Shown here: positions 1,837-23,809 of the stretch, one piece after another
Position numbering within the stretch: the first letter of the stretch is position 1
How the letters are laid out: each line of letters starts with the position of its first letter
IMG/VR virus record: IMGVR_UViG_3300050516_000005
Source of the DNA: a virus
Direction: 5' to 3' (one strand)
Length of the DNA stretch: 39,953 nucleotides
The notes under the pieces: model-generated
Seen by the model: only the letters and a program-made list of their open reading frames with translations
Databases searched by the model: none
Told to the model about the DNA's origin: nothing
Position numbers and translations under genes: made by a program

Positions 1837-2426
1837 GTTTTTCAGAGAAAATGTTGGTTTCGATATCGCCTGGCATAGCCAAGTATTCAGATGCGCTTCT
1901 CGATGCCATGAGGAATAGAGACATCAGTACATTTCTCAGGGCAAGTCACTTTCTCGCTCAATGCGCTCATGAATCATCAGGGTTCTCCACTGTTGTTGAA
2001 AACCTGAATTATTCTGCTGAACGACTTGTTTCTGTATTTCCTAAGTACTTTGACTCAAACAACTCAAAGTTATACGCAAGAAACCCTGAAAAGATAGCAA
2101 ACCGCGTATATGCAAACCGAATGGGAAACGGACCAGAAGAATCTGGTGACGGTTGGAAATACAGGGGTAGGGGGCTAATCCAATTGACTGGGAAGGACTC
2201 TTACAAAGCGTATGGAAGAGGGGTTGATGTAGAGCCAGAACTTCTTGAGACGCCTACGGGTGCCGCAGAAAGCGCGGCTTGGTTTTGGTCTAGAAATGGC
2301 ATTAACGCACTAGCTGATGCTGATGACATTAAGGCCGTCACAAGAAAAGTGAACGGTGGTCTGAATGGCCTGGATGATCGCATCAAATGGCTAATCCGTG
2401 TTGAAGAAGCACTTACGGTGGGGTGA
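1833..2426 (+). CDS. Endolysin, glycoside hydrolase family 19 (chitinase-like lysozyme)
   Basis: Motifs RASHFLAQCAHESSGF, YRGRGLIQLTGKDSY, VNGGLNGLDDR typical of GH19-type phage endolysins; sits directly upstream of holin and spanins. Confidence 0.85.
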   Translation: MSFSEKMLVSISPGIAKYSDALLDAMRNRDISTFLRASHFLAQCAHESSGFSTVVENLNYSAERLVSVFPKYFDSNNSKLYARNPEKIANRVYANRMGNGPEESGDGWKYRGRGLIQLTGKDSYKAYGRGVDVEPELLETPTGAAESAAWFWSRNGINALADADDIKAVTRKVNGGLNGLDDRIKWLIRVEEALTVG

Positions 2427-2429
2427 CCT

Positions 2430-2837
2430 ATGGCGATTGCGGATGGGGTGATCGACGCACTGTGGAACGCGGTGGAGCGCATATCGTCCATGCCGCAGCT
2501 ACAGGCGGTGCTGGTTGGTCTATTGGGTGGCGTGGCGGCTACGTACGCCTTGGCGACCTGGATGCCTCCGAACATGAATACGGCCAAGGCCAAGCGAATT
2601 ACGGCGCTGGTGGCTGGCGGAACTACGCTTAACTTGGCGCTGGTCATGAGCACCACCGTGGCGACGTTCGTGTGGGCTCTGGTGTTCGCCATGCTTTCGC
2701 CTGCGGTCCATGGGTCCATCGTCCGGTTCGTGGCCCACAAATGGCCTTGGGCGGCTCCTGAGAGCGTCATGGAGCCATCGGAGGTGGCTGAGGCGGACCG
2801 GCGTAAGCGTCAAATCGTGAGGGAGTTGGAGCCATGA
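2430..2837 (+). CDS. Holin-like membrane protein (three hydrophobic helices, charged C-tail)
   Basis: Hydrophobic stretches VLVGLLGGVAATYALATW, ITALVAGGTTLNLALVM, VATFVWALVFAMLSPAV; charged tail EADRRKRQIVRELEP; position between endolysin and spanins. Confidence 0.65.
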   Translation: MAIADGVIDALWNAVERISSMPQLQAVLVGLLGGVAATYALATWMPPNMNTAKAKRITALVAGGTTLNLALVMSTTVATFVWALVFAMLSPAVHGSIVRFVAHKWPWAAPESVMEPSEVAEADRRKRQIVRELEP

Positions 2838-3214
2838 AGACATTGAACTGGCCCATGTGGGTCATCGTGATCCTGGGTAGCGCATCGGTCTTGCTGACGC
2901 TGTACGCCATGCACCTAAAAGTAGAGATCGCCGGGTACCAGAAAGCCATGGTGACTTACCAGTCGGCTCAGGCCACGAACCTGGAATCGATATCTAATCT
3001 GGAAGCCGTTGCTCGGAAACTTGCATCCCAAGACGCCGAGAACCGAGCCAAGGCGGCGGACGCGGCGGCTAGAAATAAGCGCATGTTCGACGCACTGAAC
3101 GAACAGCTAAAGAATCGTCAAACGGTGAGGGAGAAGGTCTATGTTTCGGATAAATCGGCTGGCGATTGGGCTGACGGCATCGTTCCTTCTGCCGTGGCTG
3201 ACAGCCTGCGGTGA
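2834..3214 (+). CDS. i-spanin (Rz-like)
   Basis: N-terminal TM anchor WPMWVIVILGSASVLLTLYAM followed by a charged coiled-coil-like periplasmic region; ATGA overlap with the holin stop; contains the start of the o-spanin gene in another frame. Confidence 0.75.
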   Translation: MKTLNWPMWVIVILGSASVLLTLYAMHLKVEIAGYQKAMVTYQSAQATNLESISNLEAVARKLASQDAENRAKAADAAARNKRMFDALNEQLKNRQTVREKVYVSDKSAGDWADGIVPSAVADSLR

Positions 3215-3431
3215 TGTAGCTGTACGAACTAGGGACGTTGAGGTGCCGTATCGGGTGTATGTGCCTTTGGACGCCAGGCTGACCTCGGACGTGGATTACT
3301 CGGTGCTAACGCCGGGACCGGTAAAGAACCGGCAACTGGCCGATAAGCTCGACCAGTGCCAGGTGGTTGTTAAGCAGCAGGCGGGGCAGCTTAGGGAGAT
3401 TCGGGCTTTGCAGCCAGCCGGGCAGAATTAA
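3141..3431 (+). CDS. o-spanin (Rz1-like outer-membrane lipoprotein), overlapped architecture
   Basis: Lipoprotein signal MFRINRLAIGLTASFLLPWLTAC with lipobox LTAC; starts inside the i-spanin gene (+1 frame) and extends beyond it. Confidence 0.75.
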   Translation: MFRINRLAIGLTASFLLPWLTACGDVAVRTRDVEVPYRVYVPLDARLTSDVDYSVLTPGPVKNRQLADKLDQCQVVVKQQAGQLREIRALQPAGQN

Positions 3432-5033: not shown

Positions 5034-5167
5034 TTTGGCAGGTTGATCTTGTCGATGAGACGGTTGCCAAACCAAAGCTGTAGAACGTGCTCTTCTTCGT
5101 CCTCGTCAAATCCAAGGTCGAACTGCAAGTTCTTAGCCAAAATATCTACCAGTTCATCAGTGCTCAT
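5030..5167 (-). CDS. Small acidic hypothetical protein (45 aa, below the ORF-track cutoff)
   Basis: Hand translation MSTDELVDILAKNLQFDLGFDEDEEEHVLQLWFGNRLIDKINLPK; ATGA overlaps at both ends fill the gap exactly. Confidence 0.5.
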   Translation of the reverse strand: MSTDELVDILAKNLQFDLGFDEDEEEHVLQLWFGNRLIDKINLPK

Positions 5168-5388
5168 TCCTCATCCTTCTTTTTAGAGTAGTACTCAACC
5201 ATGCTCATCAGAGGCCTGGTGTCGTAGTACATCCACCCACTCATGGGCTCATACCACAATTTTCTATGGTCGAAGATTTCTTCTTTTAGCTCTTCGCCTT
5301 CTATGAAATTCTTTTTGTATCTTGTTTTCATGTAATCGATAGCCTGTAAAGGTGGGATGATATACATGACTACTGGCCTTGAGGCCAT
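5164..5388 (-). CDS. Hypothetical small protein (74 aa), AT-rich leftward operon
   Basis: ORF in a tightly packed co-directional chain; no motif recognised. Confidence 0.55.
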   Translation of the reverse strand: MASRPVVMYIIPPLQAIDYMKTRYKKNFIEGEELKEEIFDHRKLWYEPMSGWMYYDTRPLMSMVEYYSKKKDEE

Positions 5389-5561
5389 CGAATTACATCA
5401 AGATCTCCTTTGAAAACCATCCATGCGTACTTGAACCTAAGTTTCCAATCCTGCATTCCAATGGGACGGCTGTAAACGTAACCATTCCCGTTGTTATATG
5501 AAGTTGAATACTTGATATTTATGATGTCTTCCGGAATGAGCATGGCTGGAACTTTCTTCAT
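5370..5561 (-). CDS. Hypothetical small protein (63 aa), AT-rich leftward operon
   Basis: ORF in the chain; ATGA coupling with the upstream ORF. Confidence 0.55.
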   Translation of the reverse strand: MKKVPAMLIPEDIINIKYSTSYNNGNGYVYSRPIGMQDWKLRFKYAWMVFKGDLDVIRWPQGQ

Positions 5562-5737
5562 TTATCACCCCCAAACATCCAGGAATCGTCTTCGCCATCT
5601 TCAAGACCTTTGCTCCACGCAGCAAAAAGCATTGCAACATGGTCATTTCGATAGCATCCGTATGCATCAACCTGTGTATTTTCGACAGCCATGCTTTTTA
5701 ACCATTTTTCAAATCTAAGGTGAAATTGATCTTTCAT
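5558..5737 (-). CDS. Hypothetical small protein (59 aa, below the ORF-track cutoff)
   Basis: Hand translation MKDQFHLRFEKWLKSMAVENTQVDAYGCYRNDHVAMLFAAWSKGLEDGEDDSWMFGGDK; ATGA overlaps at both ends. Confidence 0.55.
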   Translation of the reverse strand: MKDQFHLRFEKWLKSMAVENTQVDAYGCYRNDHVAMLFAAWSKGLEDGEDDSWMFGGDK

Positions 5738-5940
5738 TTCTCAGAAACTCCAAGGGAAAACCCTTTGTGCCACCCGAAGTCAACCCCAACAAGGAAAGCA
5801 TGCCAACGGTCGCTAACCCTGTAATCCTTGTAGTCACCATTCGATGTTAGATCTAGACGCATCTTCGCCTTGGAAAACCAATCTCTGTCTTTGATCCAAG
5901 ACTCGAACCGTTGGCGGCGAATGTCGTTTTTATCGATCAT
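5734..5940 (-). CDS. Hypothetical small protein (68 aa)
   Basis: ORF in the chain; shares an RFE.W motif with 5558..5737 and 14080..14343. Confidence 0.55.
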   Translation of the reverse strand: MIDKNDIRRQRFESWIKDRDWFSKAKMRLDLTSNGDYKDYRVSDRWHAFLVGVDFGWHKGFSLGVSEK

Positions 5941-6118
5941 CTTGCACCTTCATAGCCCTGCGAACAGCTTTCCTCTCAAGATCGTTATCGCATAGAGACA
6001 TAGGATCTATCCGTGTTCGCTTAATAAGGTTTATGAGAGTAAGCCGCTGGTCTTCAAGATCATTGATCCAGTCCTGAAGCATGGCGACTTCACCAAAATC
6101 GTCTTCGTAGTCGATCAT
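5930..6118 (-). CDS. Hypothetical small acidic protein (62 aa)
   Basis: ORF in the chain with short overlaps on both sides. Confidence 0.55.
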   Translation of the reverse strand: MIDYEDDFGEVAMLQDWINDLEDQRLTLINLIKRTRIDPMSLCDNDLERKAVRRAMKVQDDR

Positions 6119-6447
6119 TCGATCACCTCAACCAGTTTGACCCGACGGGCGCCTTGACGTGCCGCATTGATGGCTGCTTCTTCCGATTCGTGACATACCA
6201 AATAGTCGCCCGCTTCTTCAGGATATTCATTTATCCAGAACTCGCGAGGACCTGGTTTTACTCGATAATCGTTTTCCTCAAAGTTCCAAACCGGCTCACC
6301 GTGTTTATGCCAATCAGTCCATTCGGCGTCCTTCCTATGCCTAAACTGGATCTTTGCCCCATTTAGGTATGCATTGATGACTAGACCTGCATCCCAGGTC
6401 TTGTGCTTGTTGACGTACTTAGCGCGATCCGCTGGGTTGCTAAACAT
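6115..6447 (-). CDS. Hypothetical protein (110 aa)
   Basis: Start moved to ATG 6447, preceded by GGAGG (ccttGGAGGttatagatATG) and overlapping the upstream stop by 8 nt; the 154-aa track ORF would overlap the upstream gene by 140 nt. Confidence 0.6.
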   Translation of the reverse strand: MFSNPADRAKYVNKHKTWDAGLVINAYLNGAKIQFRHRKDAEWTDWHKHGEPVWNFEENDYRVKPGPREFWINEYPEEAGDYLVCHESEEAAINAARQGARRVKLVEVIE

Positions 6448-6757
6448 ATCTATAACCTCCAAGGATTTCCAAAATTTTATTGCCACACTCAGCCTCGGCG
6501 TTGATGGTGGCACTAAACACGGGGTTTTCGTGGCAAGAGCTATCCCACGGCAAGCAAAGATCAGATGCAAGACGCTCAAATTTGTCTAGTACTTCTTCAA
6601 GCGCCTCGTAGGTTACCCAGCGTCCTTCGTCGTCTGGTTCCATCTTGACTCCTGTATATTCTCCTGTAGAGCGATTTTCCTGCATCTCAGGCTCAAATCT
6701 TTCTACCTGATAAAGCAATGGCTTCTGTTTGTAAAAACGGTTGTATTTCTTATCCAT
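6440..6757 (-). CDS. Hypothetical protein (105 aa)
   Basis: ORF in the chain; no motif recognised. Confidence 0.55.
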   Translation of the reverse strand: MDKKYNRFYKQKPLLYQVERFEPEMQENRSTGEYTGVKMEPDDEGRWVTYEALEEVLDKFERLASDLCLPWDSSCHENPVFSATINAEAECGNKILEILGGYRYV

Positions 6758-19015: not shown

Positions 19016-19276
19016 ATGAGCAAGGGTTCTGAGGCCGTAGCGAGGCACCGCCAGTCGAAGCTAGGCGCCGGTTGGGTGCGCATTGATGGCCTGTTGCCTC
19101 CTGAGAGCGCGAAGGCGGCCCGCGCGATGGTTGAGTGCGGTGAGGCTACCAGTCTGATCCACGCGGCCGCTGTGGCGCTTTCTGCGCGTCTTGAGGGTTA
19201 TGCCTTGGATCACGGCATTCATAAGTACGACAAAAATTGCAAATTCTGCAATCCGCCTCTTGACATTACCGGCTAA
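19016..19276 (+). CDS. Possible ribbon-helix-helix type DNA-binding regulator (86 aa)
   Basis: N-terminus SEAVARHRQSKLGAGWVRIDGLLPPESAKAARAMV resembles the S.AeRq.ryR.r....G..rv.vwvP.e pattern of small RHH regulators. Confidence 0.35.
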   Translation: MSKGSEAVARHRQSKLGAGWVRIDGLLPPESAKAARAMVECGEATSLIHAAAVALSARLEGYALDHGIHKYDKNCKFCNPPLDITG

Positions 19277-19318
19277 GCCCGTATCATTCCTACCACACCA
19301 ACCGCATCGGATGAGACC

Positions 19319-19504: not shown

Positions 19505-19674
19505 TGTGGATGAATGCAGCGGAAATCATGGCTGTTCTAAAAACTAAAAATGAGCTTAGGGATCAGCGGGAAAAAAAGCTTGAGGCAGCCAAAAGGCGAA
19601 TGCTTGATCGCATGAGGGAGGGTGACCACATGGACGGCGACGGCCTGGTCAGTTATCCGAAGGATGGTGAGTGA
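19504..19674 (+). CDS. Hypothetical small charged protein (56 aa, below cutoff)
   Basis: MWMNAAEIMAVLKTKNELRDQREKKLEAAKRRMLDRMREGDHMDGDGLVSYPKDGE; TGATG overlaps at both ends. Confidence 0.5.
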   Translation: MWMNAAEIMAVLKTKNELRDQREKKLEAAKRRMLDRMREGDHMDGDGLVSYPKDGE

Positions 19675-19922
19675 TGGACCAAGGCAAGCCACACATCTTT
19701 TTCAGTGCCGGAAGGTGGCTGTGCGGGCACGGTTTTTATAAGTGCTCTGGACAATCACCTATGCACGCTTATCGTTTTTGGCAGACCGTCCAGCAGAGTA
19801 AGATCGATTACCTGAAAAAGCATCTGCAATGGATAAATACGGCAAACAATCTTACATTGCCTGATGGGCTTATCATCCGCTACCATAAACCCAGTCCTGC
19901 CGCGCCCGCCGCGAAGGATTAG
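19674..19922 (+). CDS. Hypothetical protein (82 aa)
   Basis: TGATG coupling; followed by a terminator. Confidence 0.55.
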   Translation: MDQGKPHIFFSAGRWLCGHGFYKCSGQSPMHAYRFWQTVQQSKIDYLKKHLQWINTANNLTLPDGLIIRYHKPSPAAPAAKD

Positions 19923-19937
19923 CTGCCCCCTGATGTG

Positions 19938-19970
19938 CCCCTCATCCCACGGATGGGGGTGGCGATTTTT
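19938..19970 (+). terminator. Intrinsic terminator CCCC(T)CATCC-cac-GGATGGGGG followed by ATTTTT
   Basis: Read directly, 16 nt after the stop of 19674..19922. Confidence 0.55.
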
Positions 19971-19990
19971 AACGACGATGAGGAAATGAG

Positions 19991-20278
19991 ATGAGCGAAG
20001 TTAACTACACAAGTCAGCCTGCCATCGCTCCCGAGGGTCCCGTTTTTAGTGCGCTGTCCATCACCAACGGCAAGATCAGTCATATCGATGAAGCACTTTC
20101 TCAGCTTGAAGATGCTATCGAACTGGCTCTTAAGGGTAAGTCACCGGTTGAGGCCAAGGGCCTTCCCCCTTCGGTCATCCCGGCAACCGTCCTAGTGGGT
20201 CGCATTGAAGACATCAACGAGCGTCTTGGGTCTACGCTAACCCGAATTAACGAGATGGTGTTTCGGGTTCATCTGTAA
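19991..20278 (+). CDS. Hypothetical protein (95 aa), isolated between two terminator-like hairpins
   Basis: ATG preceded by GAGGAAATGAG; no motif recognised. Confidence 0.55.
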   Translation: MSEVNYTSQPAIAPEGPVFSALSITNGKISHIDEALSQLEDAIELALKGKSPVEAKGLPPSVIPATVLVGRIEDINERLGSTLTRINEMVFRVHL

Positions 20279-20650
20279 TATTCGCGTGCCGCCCTTCACG
20301 CGATAAGGGCTCTAATAAGGCTGTTGGCATCGAGCCGGTAAGTGGATTGCGCAATCTCGCCAGCAGCCTTACTAGGACCGGAATGCGCAGGCTGATGCGC
20401 TCTACTTGGCAGTAATAGCGGGAAAGCCTAGTCCTAAAAACCCGTAAGCCGGAGATAATCACCGGCCCGGTCCACCTAATTTGAAATGGTTGCCCGCTGT
20501 GGCTCCCGAAAGAGTCCAATACAAGCATCAAGAGGCAAGCCGGACAATCCTTACCGCCACCATTTCCGGCCACCCGTCGCCGCCGCGAGGCTCTCCTAAC
20601 ACGGGAGCCTTTCTTTTTGCTACCATTCGTGCAACCGATGGGGATAATCG
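20279..20650 (+). other. ORF-poor, hairpin-rich leader of the late operon (candidate terminated leader RNA, ncRNA or pac region)
   Basis: No plausible protein ORF. Hairpin 20283..20302 (CGCGTG/CACGCG). 12-bp helix 20317..20328 with 20359..20370. GCGCA/TGCGC, GCCGG/CCGGC and GCCGGA/TCCGGC stems. AAGCCGGA repeated at 20446 and 20537. Terminator at the 3' end. Confidence 0.4.
20588..20618 (+). terminator. Intrinsic terminator AGGCTC(T)CC-taacac-GGGAGCCT followed by TTCTTTTT
   Basis: Read directly; 33 nt upstream of the first late-operon ATG. Confidence 0.65.
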
Positions 20651-21979
20651 ATGCCGCGCGTCCTTACAGCCTACGTCTCAGACTTCCAGCGCGACCGCGT
20701 ACACCGGTCCGACTTCTATCGCGGTGAGTCACGTATTTACTCCGCCGAGTTCCGCGCAGTCATCCCCGAAGCCCAGTCCATCGCTTACGTCGAATGGCGC
20801 TGTGACCGACCTGACGTCACGATTATGTCGGATGCCACGTGTGACTCGCATTCATCTGCGGTGGCGCTCGTGGCTGGTTCGCCTGGCCTTGGCACCATGA
20901 AGGCCCAGGCCGTGCTCACCGATGGCTCGGTGGTCAATCAGATGTTCGTCGTGGGGGTCAACCCATCGCCGTGGTACACGGGCGAATCCGGCGTCGTGAC
21001 ACAGGGTGCGACGTATCTGAGGGCGGATAACTCGGGACTGCTACAGATCTTCGGCGATGCCCCCTCGGGCACGGTGGGTCAGAACTATAGCTATACGTAT
21101 ACGGCGGCTGGCGGGTCGGGTGACTATGTGTTCACCATCGCATCCGGTTCGATTCCGCCAGGCCTTCTGTTGTCCACGAATGGTGTTCTGTCAGGTATCC
21201 CTACGGTGCAGGGTAATTTCAGCTGGACGGTGAAGGTGCAGGATTCATCGTTTGCCACGCGCACGAAACCTGACTCTGCATCCATCGCGGCCAAAGCGAC
21301 GTATCAGGATTACATCGTCTCGCAGGGTCCTGACCTCTATTACCCGATGAGTGACACGGACTCGGTGTGTCGTGAACTGATTCAGAACCTCAATGGGTCG
21401 TATACAGGATTGACGATTACCCGGCAGCGCCCTTCGCTTATGCCTAACGGGCAGGGGTTCGCTGCTCAGTTCGTCGCAATGACGGATTATGTGTCAATCC
21501 CGATTAATTCGGTCCTTTCTAATTACAACAAGCCACTGACCATCGAATGGTGGGGTAATTTCGCTGCTAATCCCGAAAATGGATCGGGTGTTAGTATTAT
21601 TCAGAGCGCTAATGACAACGACAGAACGATTTATGCTGCGCTACGATATGACCGGCAGGCTGAAGCAGGATCGTTAGGCGCGAGTTCGAATAATCTTGTC
21701 ACGGGGAATGGCGGTCCGCTCATTGCTGCTACCAGTCAGTATTTCGCCATTGTATTTGGACTGACCGATACGCGTATTTATCGTAATGGCACGCTTTATT
21801 ACACTCAGCCAGCGCCGATTAACGCGATTTCAGCCTCGGCAACCGCTTATCGATTGATGGGTCCGTATATTTCTACCCAGCCATCCATTCCTACCCGAAC
21901 GTTGCAGAATCTAGCTGTTTACACCCGGGCGCTGACGGCATCGGATGTGATGGCTCACTACACCGCAGGATCGACGTAA
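20651..21979 (+). CDS. Ig-like (bacterial Ig/cadherin-like) plus LamG/ConA-like lectin domain protein
   Basis: GQNYSYTYTAAGGSGDYVFTIASGSIPPGLLLSTNGVLSGIPTVQGNFSWTVKVQD is a classic putative-Ig-domain repeat. C-terminal ...YRLMG...LQNLAVYTRALTASDVMAHYTAG is a LamG-type ending. Confidence 0.65.
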   Translation: MPRVLTAYVSDFQRDRVHRSDFYRGESRIYSAEFRAVIPEAQSIAYVEWRCDRPDVTIMSDATCDSHSSAVALVAGSPGLGTMKAQAVLTDGSVVNQMFVVGVNPSPWYTGESGVVTQGATYLRADNSGLLQIFGDAPSGTVGQNYSYTYTAAGGSGDYVFTIASGSIPPGLLLSTNGVLSGIPTVQGNFSWTVKVQDSSFATRTKPDSASIAAKATYQDYIVSQGPDLYYPMSDTDSVCRELIQNLNGSYTGLTITRQRPSLMPNGQGFAAQFVAMTDYVSIPINSVLSNYNKPLTIEWWGNFAANPENGSGVSIIQSANDNDRTIYAALRYDRQAEAGSLGASSNNLVTGNGGPLIAATSQYFAIVFGLTDTRIYRNGTLYYTQPAPINAISASATAYRLMGPYISTQPSIPTRTLQNLAVYTRALTASDVMAHYTAGST

Positions 21980-22422
21980 TGCCCATGCCTAATTCATACG
22001 ATCCCGAAATTTTCGATGAGATCATCGAGAAGATCCGCGATAATGGCTGGATCAAGGTCATCCTTGAGGAAGGCCGCGCCGAGGGACTTCCGTACCCCAC
22101 GTACCAGACTTGGCGCACGAACTGGATGCTGCGTGAGGGTAACGGCGAGAAGTTCGATGATGCTCGGGCGGATTACGCGAATAAGCTAGGGTTTGAGATC
22201 ATCGCGAAGGCGGATAACCGTAGCGACCATCCGGCGCACAATTCGAATTCGATCAAAGCCAGGATGTGGGTAGCCGAGCGTCTGAATCGCAAGCAGTGGG
22301 GCGCGCAGCAGACGATCACACATGAGGGTAACCTTCAGAAACTCACGCCTGAGCAGCTTCAGGAACAGATCGATGCGCTTTTGAGGGAAGCGGAACATGG
22401 CAGCGGTTCTGACGGAGAGTAA
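21979..22422 (+). CDS. terS: Terminase small subunit (candidate)
   Basis: Position immediately upstream of and overlapping TerL; size 147 aa; NSIKARMWVAERLNRKQWG resembles small-terminase C-terminal motifs. Confidence 0.55.
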   Translation: MPMPNSYDPEIFDEIIEKIRDNGWIKVILEEGRAEGLPYPTYQTWRTNWMLREGNGEKFDDARADYANKLGFEIIAKADNRSDHPAHNSNSIKARMWVAERLNRKQWGAQQTITHEGNLQKLTPEQLQEQIDALLREAEHGSGSDGE

Positions 22423-23809
22423 GAAGGAGAAACTGCTTGCGCTGCTCCGCGAGCGGGATCGGCGTGCCAGGACGAACCTCCTTGCCACGTATCAGCCGTA
22501 CCCAAAGCAGATGGAGTTCCATCACGCCGGGCAGGAGTTCCGCGAACGCTGCCTGATGGCGGGTAACCAGCTAGGTAAGACATGGTCCGCTGGATTCGAA
22601 ATGGCGATGCACCTGACGGGCCGGTACCCGGAGTGGTGGACGGGTCGTAAGTGGGCCGTGCCTATCGTCGCGTGGTGCGCCTCGGAGACGATGGAAGTAT
22701 CTCGTGATGCCGCTCAGCGCATTCTGTTGGGTAGAGATACGGAACGAGGCACGGGAGCGATTCCTGGCGATGACATCATCGAACTGAAGTCGTATCCGAA
22801 CGTGGCTGGTGCTGTGACGATGGCGAAGATTCGTCATATCACGGGCGGCACGTCCATCGTTATCTTCAAGTCTTACGATCAGGGACGCCAGAAGTTCCAG
22901 GGTGACTCCATCGATATTTTCTGGCCCGACGAAGAGCCACCGGAGTCGGTCTACACGGAAGGGCTGACCCGAACGAACGCGACGAACGGTATCGTTATGA
23001 TGACGTACACGCCGCTCTTGGGTATGTCGAACGTCACTAAACGGTTCCTGATGGAGCCGAGCGACGACCGTATCGTGGTGAAAATGACCATCGATGACGC
23101 CTTGCACTACACGCAAGAGAAGCGCGACCAGATTATCGCATCTTACCCTGAGCACGAGCGTGAGGCCCGGACGATGGGTATCCCGGTCATGGGTTCGGGT
23201 AAGGTGTTCCCGATCACCGAGGCGAGGATAAAATACGAATCGGGCGACGTTACGATTCAGCCTCACTGGGCCAGGATATCTGGCATCGATTTCGGGTGGG
23301 ATCACCCCACGGGCTGGGCGGCTCTGGCCTGGGACCGCGATTCGGACGTAATCTACGTGTACGACTGTTTCGGGGTGCGTAACTCAACGCCGATCATGAC
23401 GGCGGGAATGATCCGCCCCAAGGGTGACTGGATTCCTATCGCGTGGCCTCACGATGGGTTGCAGCACGATAAAGGGTCTGGCGAGCAGTTGGCCGAGCAG
23501 TACCGGAGCCAGGGGCTCAATATGCTGCCTAATCGGGTCACTTTTGAGGACGGCACGAATGGTGTTGAGGCCGGTATTATGGATATGTATGACCGGATGC
23601 AGACGGGTCGTCTTAAAGTGGCATCCCATTTGACCGATTTCTGGTCGGAATTCCGTTTATATCACCGGAAGGACGGGAAAATCGTCAAGGAAAACGACGA
23701 CGTCATTTCTGCGGTAAGATACGCCATTATGGGGAAGCGGTACGCCGTGACGAAATCGGAAACAGCCCCGTTAGTCCTTAACTTCAGGTCTCAATTCCGC
23801 CATGGCTAA
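22397..23809 (+). CDS. terL: Terminase large subunit
   Basis: YPKQMEFHHAG ... MAGNQLGKTWS (Walker A, T4 gp17-like QLGKT) ... IFWPDEEP (Walker B region); C-terminal nuclease-like half; followed by the portal gene. Confidence 0.9.
   Translation: MAAVLTESKKEKLLALLRERDRRARTNLLATYQPYPKQMEFHHAGQEFRERCLMAGNQLGKTWSAGFEMAMHLTGRYPEWWTGRKWAVPIVAWCASETMEVSRDAAQRILLGRDTERGTGAIPGDDIIELKSYPNVAGAVTMAKIRHITGGTSIVIFKSYDQGRQKFQGDSIDIFWPDEEPPESVYTEGLTRTNATNGIVMMTYTPLLGMSNVTKRFLMEPSDDRIVVKMTIDDALHYTQEKRDQIIASYPEHEREARTMGIPVMGSGKVFPITEARIKYESGDVTIQPHWARISGIDFGWDHPTGWAALAWDRDSDVIYVYDCFGVRNSTPIMTAGMIRPKGDWIPIAWPHDGLQHDKGSGEQLAEQYRSQGLNMLPNRVTFEDGTNGVEAGIMDMYDRMQTGRLKVASHLTDFWSEFRLYHRKDGKIVKENDDVISAVRYAIMGKRYAVTKSETAPLVLNFRSQFRHG

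Follow-up and report, generated by a model that had tools for sequence, protein, structure and literature searches.

A conserved folded RNA with a tRNA-like outline in the spacer ahead of the late genes of a P22/Xfas53-like phage

We analysed the 372-nt spacer at positions 20279-20650 of the IMG/VR virus record IMGVR_UViG_3300050516_000005, a stretch of 39,953 nucleotides (the window) that represents a ~40-kb P22/Xfas53-like phage genome, with a terminase large subunit (TerL) 58% identical to that of Xylella phage Xfas53. The spacer carries, on the plus strand, a member of a family of conserved, strand-specific, folded RNA elements carried as a small cargo module by phage transcripts, chiefly in late leaders, early-left leaders and transfer RNA (tRNA) arrays. 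An earlier note, made from the letters of the window alone, had likened the spacer to a lambdoid PR'-6S RNA-tR' leader and had named a stable non-coding RNA as a fallback, and it is this fallback that proved essentially right. The outline of the element resembles that of a tRNA, and we tentatively propose, with a probability of about 0.42 for the whole chain of steps, that it may be a tRNA mimic excised by tRNA-processing enzymes to act in trans as a stable RNA.

Fold and covariation of the element

The element reads, 5′ to 3′, as a 7-9-bp helix P1 whose sequence varies by phage, a junction AAU, a hairpin B (5-bp stem, loop GGCUGA), a variable stretch of 10 to about 180 nt, A or AA, a hairpin C (5-bp stem, loop usually AGAUCAGCA) and, following without a spacer, the 3′ strand of P1. 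A minimal form (L254, a 72-nt extract including flanks) has no variable arm at all.

The fold was evaluated in two alignments, A3 (92 hits mostly picked via hairpin C) and A5 (105 hits picked via hairpin B). Standard pairs filled 94.9% of the cells in A3 and 94.2% in A5, and changes on both sides occurred at 16/19 and 15/19 pairs, respectively. None of 500 shuffles reached any of the observed measures, and sliding the partners by 1-3 columns left 30-49% paired. Covarying pairs comprised 5/5 of hairpin B in A3, 5/5 of hairpin C in A5, and 8-9 of the 9 pairs of helix P1 in both. Among 185 distinct sequences, which have 57 different 7-nt P1 strands, the 17 inner pairs were 2955 times Watson-Crick, 72 times G-U, 15 times A-C and 26 times others; the excess of G-U over A-C shows that the fold is one of RNA, specific to this strand.

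Complementarity between loop B (GCUGA) and loop C (UCAGC) extends over at least 5 contiguous nt in 165/179 sequences, compared with 4.6% when loop C was shuffled, and two compensated variants of the loop pair were found (GGUGA/UCACC and GCGA/UCGC). A kissing-loop contact between B and C is likely on this basis, which is mostly one of conservation.

Both the membership of the window copy in the family and its fold are near-certain. Model R1, constructed from 37 sequences (alignment A2) with the window and its closest relative, the contig L001, left out, gave exactly one match in the window, at 20371-20477 of the plus strand (69.2 bits, E about 1e-16). Model R2, constructed from 92 hits without the window in its seed and run with filters off, gave 67.9 bits, and the next best match in the window was 11 bits. 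As a specificity control, 100 genomic loci with a hairpin-C-like 19-mer were examined, two of which (Roseateles, Stutzerimonas) matched the model; the scan pattern was a degenerate hairpin C, whose matches in G+C-rich genomes are mostly due to chance. Window positions 20382-20400 (AAU and hairpin B) are the exact consensus, and the 3′ half of the C stem (20462-20466) abuts C20467 of helix P1 with no spacer. Loop C of the window, AGAUAAUCA, differs at two positions from that of L001, which is canonical.

The element belongs to no Rfam 15 family. At gathering thresholds no match was obtained in the whole window, and at E values up to 10 the spacer gave only spurious ones (DnaX, 22.5 of 35 bits, minus strand; rydB, 13.8 of 50 bits); a search of the L001 spacer and of a canonical copy from phage P1 gave nothing relevant either. 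ARAGORN found 0 tRNA or transfer-messenger RNA (tmRNA) genes in the window, and the spacer had no match in the Rfam tRNA clan. The Rfam and covariation check proposed in the earlier note thus returned no known family, but covariation in all three helices.

The leader in the window and its relatives

The spacer lies between a 95-aa open reading frame (ORF; 19991-20278) and the gene of a 442-aa LamG-domain protein, whose ATG at 20651 starts the first late gene. Pfam and PHROGs gave the order of the downstream operon as the 442-aa LamG-like gene, the terminase small subunit TerS (21979-22422, ~1.3 kb downstream of the spacer) and TerL (22397-23809). The best explanation of the spacer is that it is the transcribed leader of this late (packaging and structural) operon, an "RNA island", composed as follows.

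19942-19962, plus strand: terminator-like hairpin from the terminator scan, at the 5′ edge of the variable cargo slot
19991-20278, plus strand: 95-aa ORF occupying the exchangeable cargo slot; without a match in Pfam or PHROGs or a meaningful one in PDB
20282-20303, plus strand: hairpin H0, 6-7-bp stem, loop CCGCCCUU; in the minimum free energy (MFE) fold 7 bp, 20282-20288 with 20297-20303
20304-20315, plus strand: conserved linker AUAAGGGCUCUAA after H0
20316-20371, plus strand: hairpin P0, a 13-bp helix (20316-20328 with 20359-20371) with one G-U (T20324-G20363) and a 30-nt variable insert, ending 3 nt before helix P1
20375-20473, plus strand: core element (covariance-model hit 20371-20477)
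20375-20381 with 20467-20473, plus strand: helix P1, 7 bp
20382-20384, plus strand: junction AAU
20385-20400, plus strand: hairpin B, stem GCGCA/UGCGC, loop GGCUGA
20401-20447, plus strand: variable arm
20448-20466, plus strand: hairpin C, stem GCCGG/CCGGC, atypical loop (given above)
20474-20477, plus strand: 3′ tail ACCU
20478-20565 (approx.), plus strand: decayed second tandem copy, carrying the second AAGCCGGA at 20537; hairpins B and C no longer form
20557-20587, plus strand: C-rich block CCACCAUUUCCGGCCACCCGUCGCCGCCGCG leading into the terminator; 20557-20645 is 92% identical to L001
20588-20618, plus strand: intrinsic terminator, 7-bp G+C-rich stem with one bulge, loop UAACAC, then UUUCUUUUU
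20623-20653, plus strand: short hairpin CCAUU..GAUGG (to 20644) over a GGGGA ribosome-binding site, then ATG 20651; from sequence reading, conserved in L001

The sequence features listed in the earlier note are all present, at or within 1 nt of where it had placed them. Its hairpin at 20283-20302 (stem CGCGUG/CACGCG) is real and extends to 7 bp in the MFE fold, and its "12-bp helix" is P0, present with the one G-U and actually 13 bp long. The direct repeat AAGCCGGA at 20446 and 20537 is also there.

The description "highly structured" held in part. The MFE z-score of the whole spacer was -1.6 on either strand, that of the 5′ 198 nt -2.0 and that of the 3′ 178 nt +0.15. Thermodynamics alone does not make the spacer special, and it is the comparative evidence that lifts the structure above chance. 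The unconstrained MFE fold of 20281-20478 recovered H0, P0, helix P1, B and C.

The spacer had also been called ORF-free. No credible gene was found in it, but two mechanical ORFs cross it, one of 108 aa on the minus strand (20247-20573) and one of 139 aa on the plus strand (20481-20900). Both are broken in L001 and matched no Pfam family; being unconserved and without a family, they indicate that the spacer is not a protein gene. That it is the largest non-coding stretch of the window is plausible, since the other apparent gap, at 5.1-6.1 kb, is filled by small overlapping ORFs on the minus strand. These are five chained ORFs of 59-74 aa at 5164-6118, with overlaps of 4-19 nt and a G+C content of 0.44, which look like a typical early-left cluster. 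On the other side of the spacer, the 442-aa protein (20651-21979) has a C-terminal Laminin_G_3/concanavalin-like domain and an unusual placement upstream of TerS; a peptide-pattern search of IMG/VR gave no relative of it.

Relatives were sought in 80 viral contigs encoding a related TerL, three of which have the element. L001 (TerL 98%) is the only one with the same spacer, in which four blocks 92-97% identical to the window are separated by unrelated or length-variable stretches. One block, 19891-19968, is 96% identical to L001 2097-2174 (blastn), holds the hairpin 19942-19962 and overlaps the end of the ORF 19671-19922. The 95-aa ORF of the window is replaced in L001 by an 87-nt tRNA-like gene (2184-2270), called tRNA-Asn with anticodon ATT by ARAGORN and tRNA-Sec at only 21.7 bits by Rfam, with a perfect GGTTCGAATCC T-arm, and ending ~5 nt before H0. 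This exchange argues for a cargo gene rather than an antiterminator, and the earlier note's candidacy of 19991-20278 as a read-through factor is unlikely, given that L001 lacks the ORF and keeps the leader and terminator.

The accessory hairpins are conserved less widely than the core. In L001 and the contig L198 the H0 loop is conserved and its stem partly compensated, and the P0 helix is 15 bp long with inserts of other lengths. When H0 and the linker (block A) were searched as a wider motif, they were found only in L198 and the L001 contig. L198 has the whole module of H0, linker, P0 and core, with a compensated C stem (GCCCG/CGGGC) and no terminator, a gene starting 22 nt past the element; the module and the terminator are thus separable.

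L001 has a second, intact copy in tandem, directly after the first (2557-2671, 53.6 bits), in which both the B and the C stem are compensated. At the corresponding place in the window, about 20478-20565, there was no model match even with filters off, and identity to L001 is low, compared with 92-97% in the flanking blocks; this stretch is a decayed second copy. The direct repeat AAGCCGGA arises because its two occurrences are the 5′ halves of hairpin C in the intact and the decayed tandem copies.

The strong terminator noted ahead of the late operon is real, conserved and compensated in L001 (GGCUC-CC/GGGAGCC in the window, GCCUGCC/GGCGGGC in L001). The terminator scan placed its stem-loop at 20587-20611, with UUUCUUUUU running to 20618, 32 nt before the ATG. 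Together with the hairpin 19942-19962, it would make two conserved terminators ahead of the late genes, and the hairpin 20623-20644 could couple translation to read-through. A conserved terminator 32 nt before the first late gene, with no room for a promoter after it, implies that late expression needs read-through from upstream. The promoter scan found nothing promoter-like from 19776 to 22015; the nearest candidates were at 19748-19775 (9/12 matches) and 19260-19287 (11/12).

As the earlier note had stated, no Q-like protein is recognisable. The six small ORFs at 18.6-20.3 kb have no Pfam or PHROG match, and the three that were compared with PDB sequences gave no meaningful match. A novel read-through factor could be too divergent for recognition; the agent may be a protein, an RNA element or simple leakiness.

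Distribution and genomic setting of the family

The spacer region (19900-20700) had no blastn match among 50,697 phage records, and the family could be reached only via its two 20-nt hairpins. The contigs L004 and L005 (TerL 60%) have in common with the window only two strings of 20-22 nt, GAATGCGCAGGCTGATGCGC and AAGCCGGAGATCAGCACCGGCC. Exact IMG/VR scans found each string in at least 120 contigs, the two on the same strand and 30-185 nt apart. A 48-nt query consisting of B and C matched 238 phage records, of which 64 were from Pseudomonas, 60 from Klebsiella and 44 from Escherichia; other genera included Burkholderia, Erwinia, Aeromonas, Xanthomonas, Acidovorax, Ralstonia and Yersinia. We judged the carriers to be both temperate and probably virulent phages. 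One enterobacterial variant alone was present in 846/5426 complete Escherichia coli genomes (about 16%).

Several well-studied phages carry the element. Phage P1 has two clear copies and a weak third (25.5 bits) between tRNA-Thr and tciA, downstream of two tRNAs, each preceded by a P0 hairpin and falling in the interval where other annotations put plp and upl (L294 about 2420-3320). In HK633 the order is Q, an annotated PR'/qut, a putative tR'-like terminator, ~450 nt, the element, another terminator-like hairpin and the holin gene. The P22-like phages CUS-3 and IME10 and Pseudomonas phage YA3 likewise have it between Q and holin, and PY54 between a methylase gene and the lysis genes. In D3 the element lies under "orf86" (L419 2405-2719), between tRNA-Met and a tRNA-Gly/Asn/Thr run, and in Klebsiella phage KP591P3 it is followed after 3 nt by tRNA-Ser/Arg/Met, the unit being opposite in direction to the flanking genes. 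In Stx2a_WGPS2, e14-like prophages and Acidovorax AP1, it is located downstream of a cI/Xre repressor and ahead of early-left genes. The contig L082 has a minus-strand copy upstream of a terminator and a holin-lysozyme-Rz cassette.

The two copies of L082 (4583-4716, minus; 6446-6567, plus) are divergent and flank an IS3-family insertion (transposase ORFs 5199-6319). Copies underlie annotated or historical ORFs in phage P1 (plp/upl), D3 (orf86) and YA3 (the 5′ end of "holin", L420 2070-2125), and these ORFs may be mis-annotations.

A tRNA was found within 500 nt of 23/190 distinct elements, and all such tRNAs (41/41) are on the strand of the element. Five of them start 1-4 nt past it, which is the normal spacing of a tRNA array. 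Sense-strand terminators within 200 nt downstream accompany 25/93 elements compared with 10-12/93 in three control regions, and in seven members the terminator is 0-8 nt past the element. The gene-orientation statistic with longest ORFs as proxies was too noisy (same/opposite strand 60/24 upstream and 51/32 downstream), and annotated records and tRNAs were used instead.

A long hairpin abutting helix P1 is common in the family, with a mean best helix of 10.1 bp compared with 7.2 bp in the control. Just 5′ of P0, a complement of at least 6 nt of the P1 5′ strand, that is a copy of the P1 3′ strand, was observed in 43% of loci, compared with 10% under the null (e.g. L187, L192, L215, L226, L236, L260; phage P1, L294 2421-2506). 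It could constitute an RNA switch, in which the P1 5′ strand pairs either upstream, extending P0, or downstream, forming P1, or it could be a flanking direct repeat. The sole 6-nt upstream match of the window is ~180 nt away inside the 95-aa ORF and is probably due to chance.

A second small motif was also seen near the element, a hairpin GCCGG-AAAGA-CGGC or GCCGGA(N)ACGTAACCGGC, often GACAGCCGGAAAGACGGC (L229, L231, L235, L224, L086, L096, L081; phage P1, L294 2823-2840), which in some cases immediately precedes a repeat of the P1 3′ strand, in the manner of a small hairpin C. T-arm-like hairpins (GGGTTCGAATCCC) are present inside P0 or the variable arm of some copies (L294 2470-2486; the variable arms of L282 and L252; L421 1958-1975), a hint that tRNA genes may be the origin of the modules or their recombination partners.

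The tRNA-like reading and its alternatives

Seven base pairs of P1 are formed in over 90% of sequences and continue directly into the 5-bp C stem; the resulting 12 bp form a stack as in the acceptor/T arm of a tRNA. By analogy, hairpin B, reached via the AAU junction, would take the position of the D-arm and the variable arm that of the anticodon arm, and the contact between loops B and C would correspond to the elbow. The topology is thus that of a cloverleaf, and the element has a C-rich, ACC-like tail and takes up places in the tRNA arrays of phages, on the same strand. Past the 7-bp stem, the next four bases read A-C-C-(C/A) in the consensus; xCC occurs in 42/184 sequences, ~3x the rough expectation, xCCA in 12/184, and the window has ACCU. 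The element differs from a tRNA in that it has no T-loop/D-loop consensus, its elbow is a 5-bp Watson-Crick kissing helix, its anticodon-arm position is optional and varies in length, its P1 is often extended and its CCA is rarely encoded.

The 7-bp core, the ACC tail and the tRNA-array spacing suggest excision by tRNA-processing enzymes and persistence as a stable RNA, and the fact that both loops hardly vary among phages with widely different hosts suggests that the excised or nascent RNA contacts something conserved. Under the mechanism we propose, the element would be transcribed within phage early, late or tRNA-cluster transcripts. Its 5′ side would be cut by RNase P, and its 3′ side by RNase P acting on a downstream tRNA or by nucleases. 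The released, stable tRNA mimic would then have a trans-acting role, its target being a conserved factor, from host or phage, that binds tRNAs. The terminator 20588-20618 would be a separate element closing the RNA island, and a factor acting from upstream would have to read through it for the late genes to be expressed. Stable RNAs encoded in the tRNA clusters of phages include the species 1 and 2 RNAs of T4, and the precursors of P1/P7 C4 RNA and P4 CI RNA are tRNA-like substrates of RNase P.

Several points weigh against this tRNA-mimic mechanism. Every step beyond a conserved folded RNA on this strand is one that we infer from sequence, fold and genomic setting. The element is no canonical tRNA (ARAGORN and the Rfam tRNA model were negative) and loop C is not a T-loop; helix P1 frequently exceeds 7 bp and reaches 23, an NCCA is encoded only in 12/184 sequences, and a tRNA within 500 nt accompanies just 12% of the elements. 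The near-invariance of the loops is also compatible with a ribozyme core, an RNA polymerase-binding RNA or a ligand-binding RNA. Downstream sense-strand terminators are about 2-fold enriched (25 vs 10-12 of 93), and the preferred sites, after Q/PR' and cI-type repressors, are where antitermination sites sit. The phage P1 region with the copies (plp, upl) was non-essential in a CRISPR interference (CRISPRi) screen (PMC10695390). In the window itself, loop C keeps only 3 contiguous nt complementary to loop B, a weakness seen in just one other member; with its two substitutions weakening the loop-loop pairing, the window copy may be partly disabled. That the family constitutes a new functional class, for example a minimal "acceptor/T-arm plus elbow" tRNA mimic, an RNA polymerase-modifying RNA or a self-cleaving RNA, seems unlikely on balance.

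Among the alternatives, a cis-acting RNA for processive antitermination or against Rho, like HK022 put, is improbable. The nascent element would bind its own RNA polymerase and read through 20588-20618 and later terminators with no Q-like protein, in keeping with the absence of a recognisable Q-like protein upstream in the window and with the conserved terminator 115 nt downstream, just ahead of the late genes. The order element, terminator, late or lysis genes recurs in L004/L005 and L082, the enrichment of downstream terminators (25/93 vs 10-12/93) points the same way, and the copies downstream of cI-type repressors are at the nutL/putL position. Untranslated tRNA arrays, which the element heads, would need protection from Rho, and invariant loops would fit a conserved polymerase surface. 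However, a Q gene coexists with the element in HK633, CUS-3, IME10 and YA3, and in HK633 there are also the annotated PR'/qut and the putative tR'-like terminator upstream, so that the element is not needed for antitermination there. Moreover, 73% of members (68/93) have no terminator within 200 nt, and the phage P1 copies are downstream of two tRNAs, not at the start of an operon. Like put, the element is a structured phage RNA of early and late leaders, located upstream of terminators and with no obvious protein partner, but the architectures differ: put RNA, ~70 nt long, combines a triplex with a V-shaped arrangement of two stems and contacts the zinc-binding domain of beta' (PMC9378689), whereas kissing loops and a closed three- or four-way junction characterise the element. 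No copy is present in HK022 itself, whose 24.0-40.75 kb region gave no model match above 16 bits.

A passive "punctuation mark" for processing or stability, that is a cleavage signal for RNase P or RNase E or a protective end, the excised RNA being functionless, ranks equally low. The tRNA-like topology, the tRNA-array spacing and the co-orientation with tRNAs would all suit it, as would the location at boundaries (Q-lysis, repressor-early genes, early-structural genes), the freedom of the P1 helix and variable arm to vary, and the dispensability of the phage P1 region. A cleavage signal would not require both loops to be near-invariant across phages of Pseudomonas, enterobacteria, Burkholderia, Xanthomonas and Acidovorax, and ordinary tRNAs or simple hairpins could serve equally.

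Closer to the model of the earlier note is a base-pairing or protein-sponging small RNA (sRNA), for which the spacer would be a ~330-nt gene or an attenuated 6S-like transcript ending at 20618; we consider this more doubtful still. A terminator stands directly after the island, and in seven members it follows the element within 0-8 nt; prophage sRNAs such as PasA occupy the same Q-holin region (bioRxiv 10.64898/2026.05.13.724894). By sequence reading, a weak extended -10-like TGTAATATT overlies the stop codon of the 95-aa ORF, but it is absent from L001 and L198, and the promoter scan was empty in and near the spacer. Most members have no nearby terminator, and there is no conserved single-stranded seed, the conserved nucleotides being in two mutually pairing loops. 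The PasA region of phage YYZ-2008 is not a family member: the sRNAs PasA/PasC were rejected as relatives after no model match was obtained in YYZ-2008 20-34 kb, including the esterase-to-holin spacer in which PasA has been placed (bioRxiv 10.64898/2026.05.13.724894).

The lambdoid analogy from which this model comes stands by position and terminator only. Like the lambda late leader (PR'-qut-6S RNA-tR'), the element is upstream of late genes, it is downstream of Q in HK633, CUS-3, IME10 and YA3, and the window has a terminator before its first late gene. The 6S/tR' unit is distinct from the conserved structure: the PR'/qut and tR'-like terminator of HK633 stand apart from the element, as a unit of their own ~450 nt upstream of it, and we know of no conserved fold in the lambda 6S leader. 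Q, PR' and qut were not identified in the window, where there is no promoter-like site in the spacer, and a 6S-like or antiterminator role is unproven.

A new class of self-cleaving ribozyme is very improbable. It would combine a compact junction of three or four helices with an optional arm and a tertiary loop-loop contact, for which the minimal version of ~70 nt without a variable arm (L254), the invariant loops and AAU junction, and the proximity to tRNAs, among which several known ribozyme classes live in phages, can be cited. No Rfam ribozyme family matched and nothing indicates a cleavage site; the invariance is mostly explained by the loop-loop helix, and the junction strands are short (AAU, A/AA, none). 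On inspection, these strands do not fit hammerhead, twister-sister or hepatitis delta virus (HDV)-like cores.

A riboswitch with a terminator platform was also rejected: the P1 3′ strand is 115 nt from the terminator with the decayed repeat between, 68/93 members are terminator-free within 200 nt, and P1 is long and stable.

A DNA-level site (pac, cos, TerS-binding repeats, a recombination site or a miniature mobile element) is hardly credible, even with the spacer ~1.3 kb upstream of TerS, the AAGCCGGA direct repeat and the upstream copies of the P1 3′ strand (43% of loci vs 10% expected), which resemble flanking direct repeats, because the G-U count of 72 against 15 A-C in the helices and the strict co-orientation with tRNAs denote a strand-specific RNA, the inner hairpins are conserved and the terminal helix variable, the opposite of a transposon-like element, and the family is found in phage types with other terminases, in only 3/80 TerL relatives, and in the tRNA region of phage P1 and the Q-lysis interval of lambdoid phages, presumably not where the pac and cos sites of those phages lie. 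The earlier suggestion of pac or TerS-binding repeats was accordingly dropped, the AAGCCGGA copies being the hairpin-C 5′ halves of tandem RNA copies.

Comparison with other structured RNAs showed that the element differs from put, the tested PasA locus, RydB, YrlA and tRNA/tmRNA. It is similar to ROOL, GOLLD and YrlA in being borne by phages or prophages, often near tRNA genes, and in its strong covariation, and YrlA has a tRNA-like module; it is much smaller (about 70-220 nt), has another fold and gave no Rfam match to them, the sole YrlA match (23 bits) lying over the phage P1 tRNA genes and not over the element. A hairpin of E. coli RydB (RF00118), GCCGGAGAUAAGCGCCGG, is nearly identical to hairpin C, and its loop resembles the AGAUAAUCA of the window. 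RydB (L422, E. coli K-12, 2714-2781, minus strand) is without hairpin B and helix P1, and the model scored 11.9 bits over its hairpin only. Phage-borne tRNA-like or structured RNAs near tRNAs therefore have precedents in the T4 species 1 and 2 RNAs, ROOL and GOLLD. The motif strings were not found in open-access text, which leaves room for an earlier description.

For the window, a vaguely described "structured leader" has become a defined map of two accessory hairpins, one intact element, one decayed copy and one terminator. For the family, a fold with exceptionally clear covariation sits in textbook phages (P1, D3, CUS-3, IME10, HK633, Stx2 phages, PY54), yet without an Rfam family, and several reference genomes hide it under doubtful ORF annotations. 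Its tRNA-like outline, its co-orientation with tRNAs and its preferred sites are relevant to the question of what, apart from decoding tRNAs, is carried in phage "RNA islands". If the tRNA-mimic version is true, the element could, for example, decoy or inhibit defence nucleases that target tRNAs, or hijack RNase P or CCA-adding activity. Phage "tRNA islands" would then carry a non-decoding member with its own job, expressed early or late in many unrelated phages of Proteobacteria.

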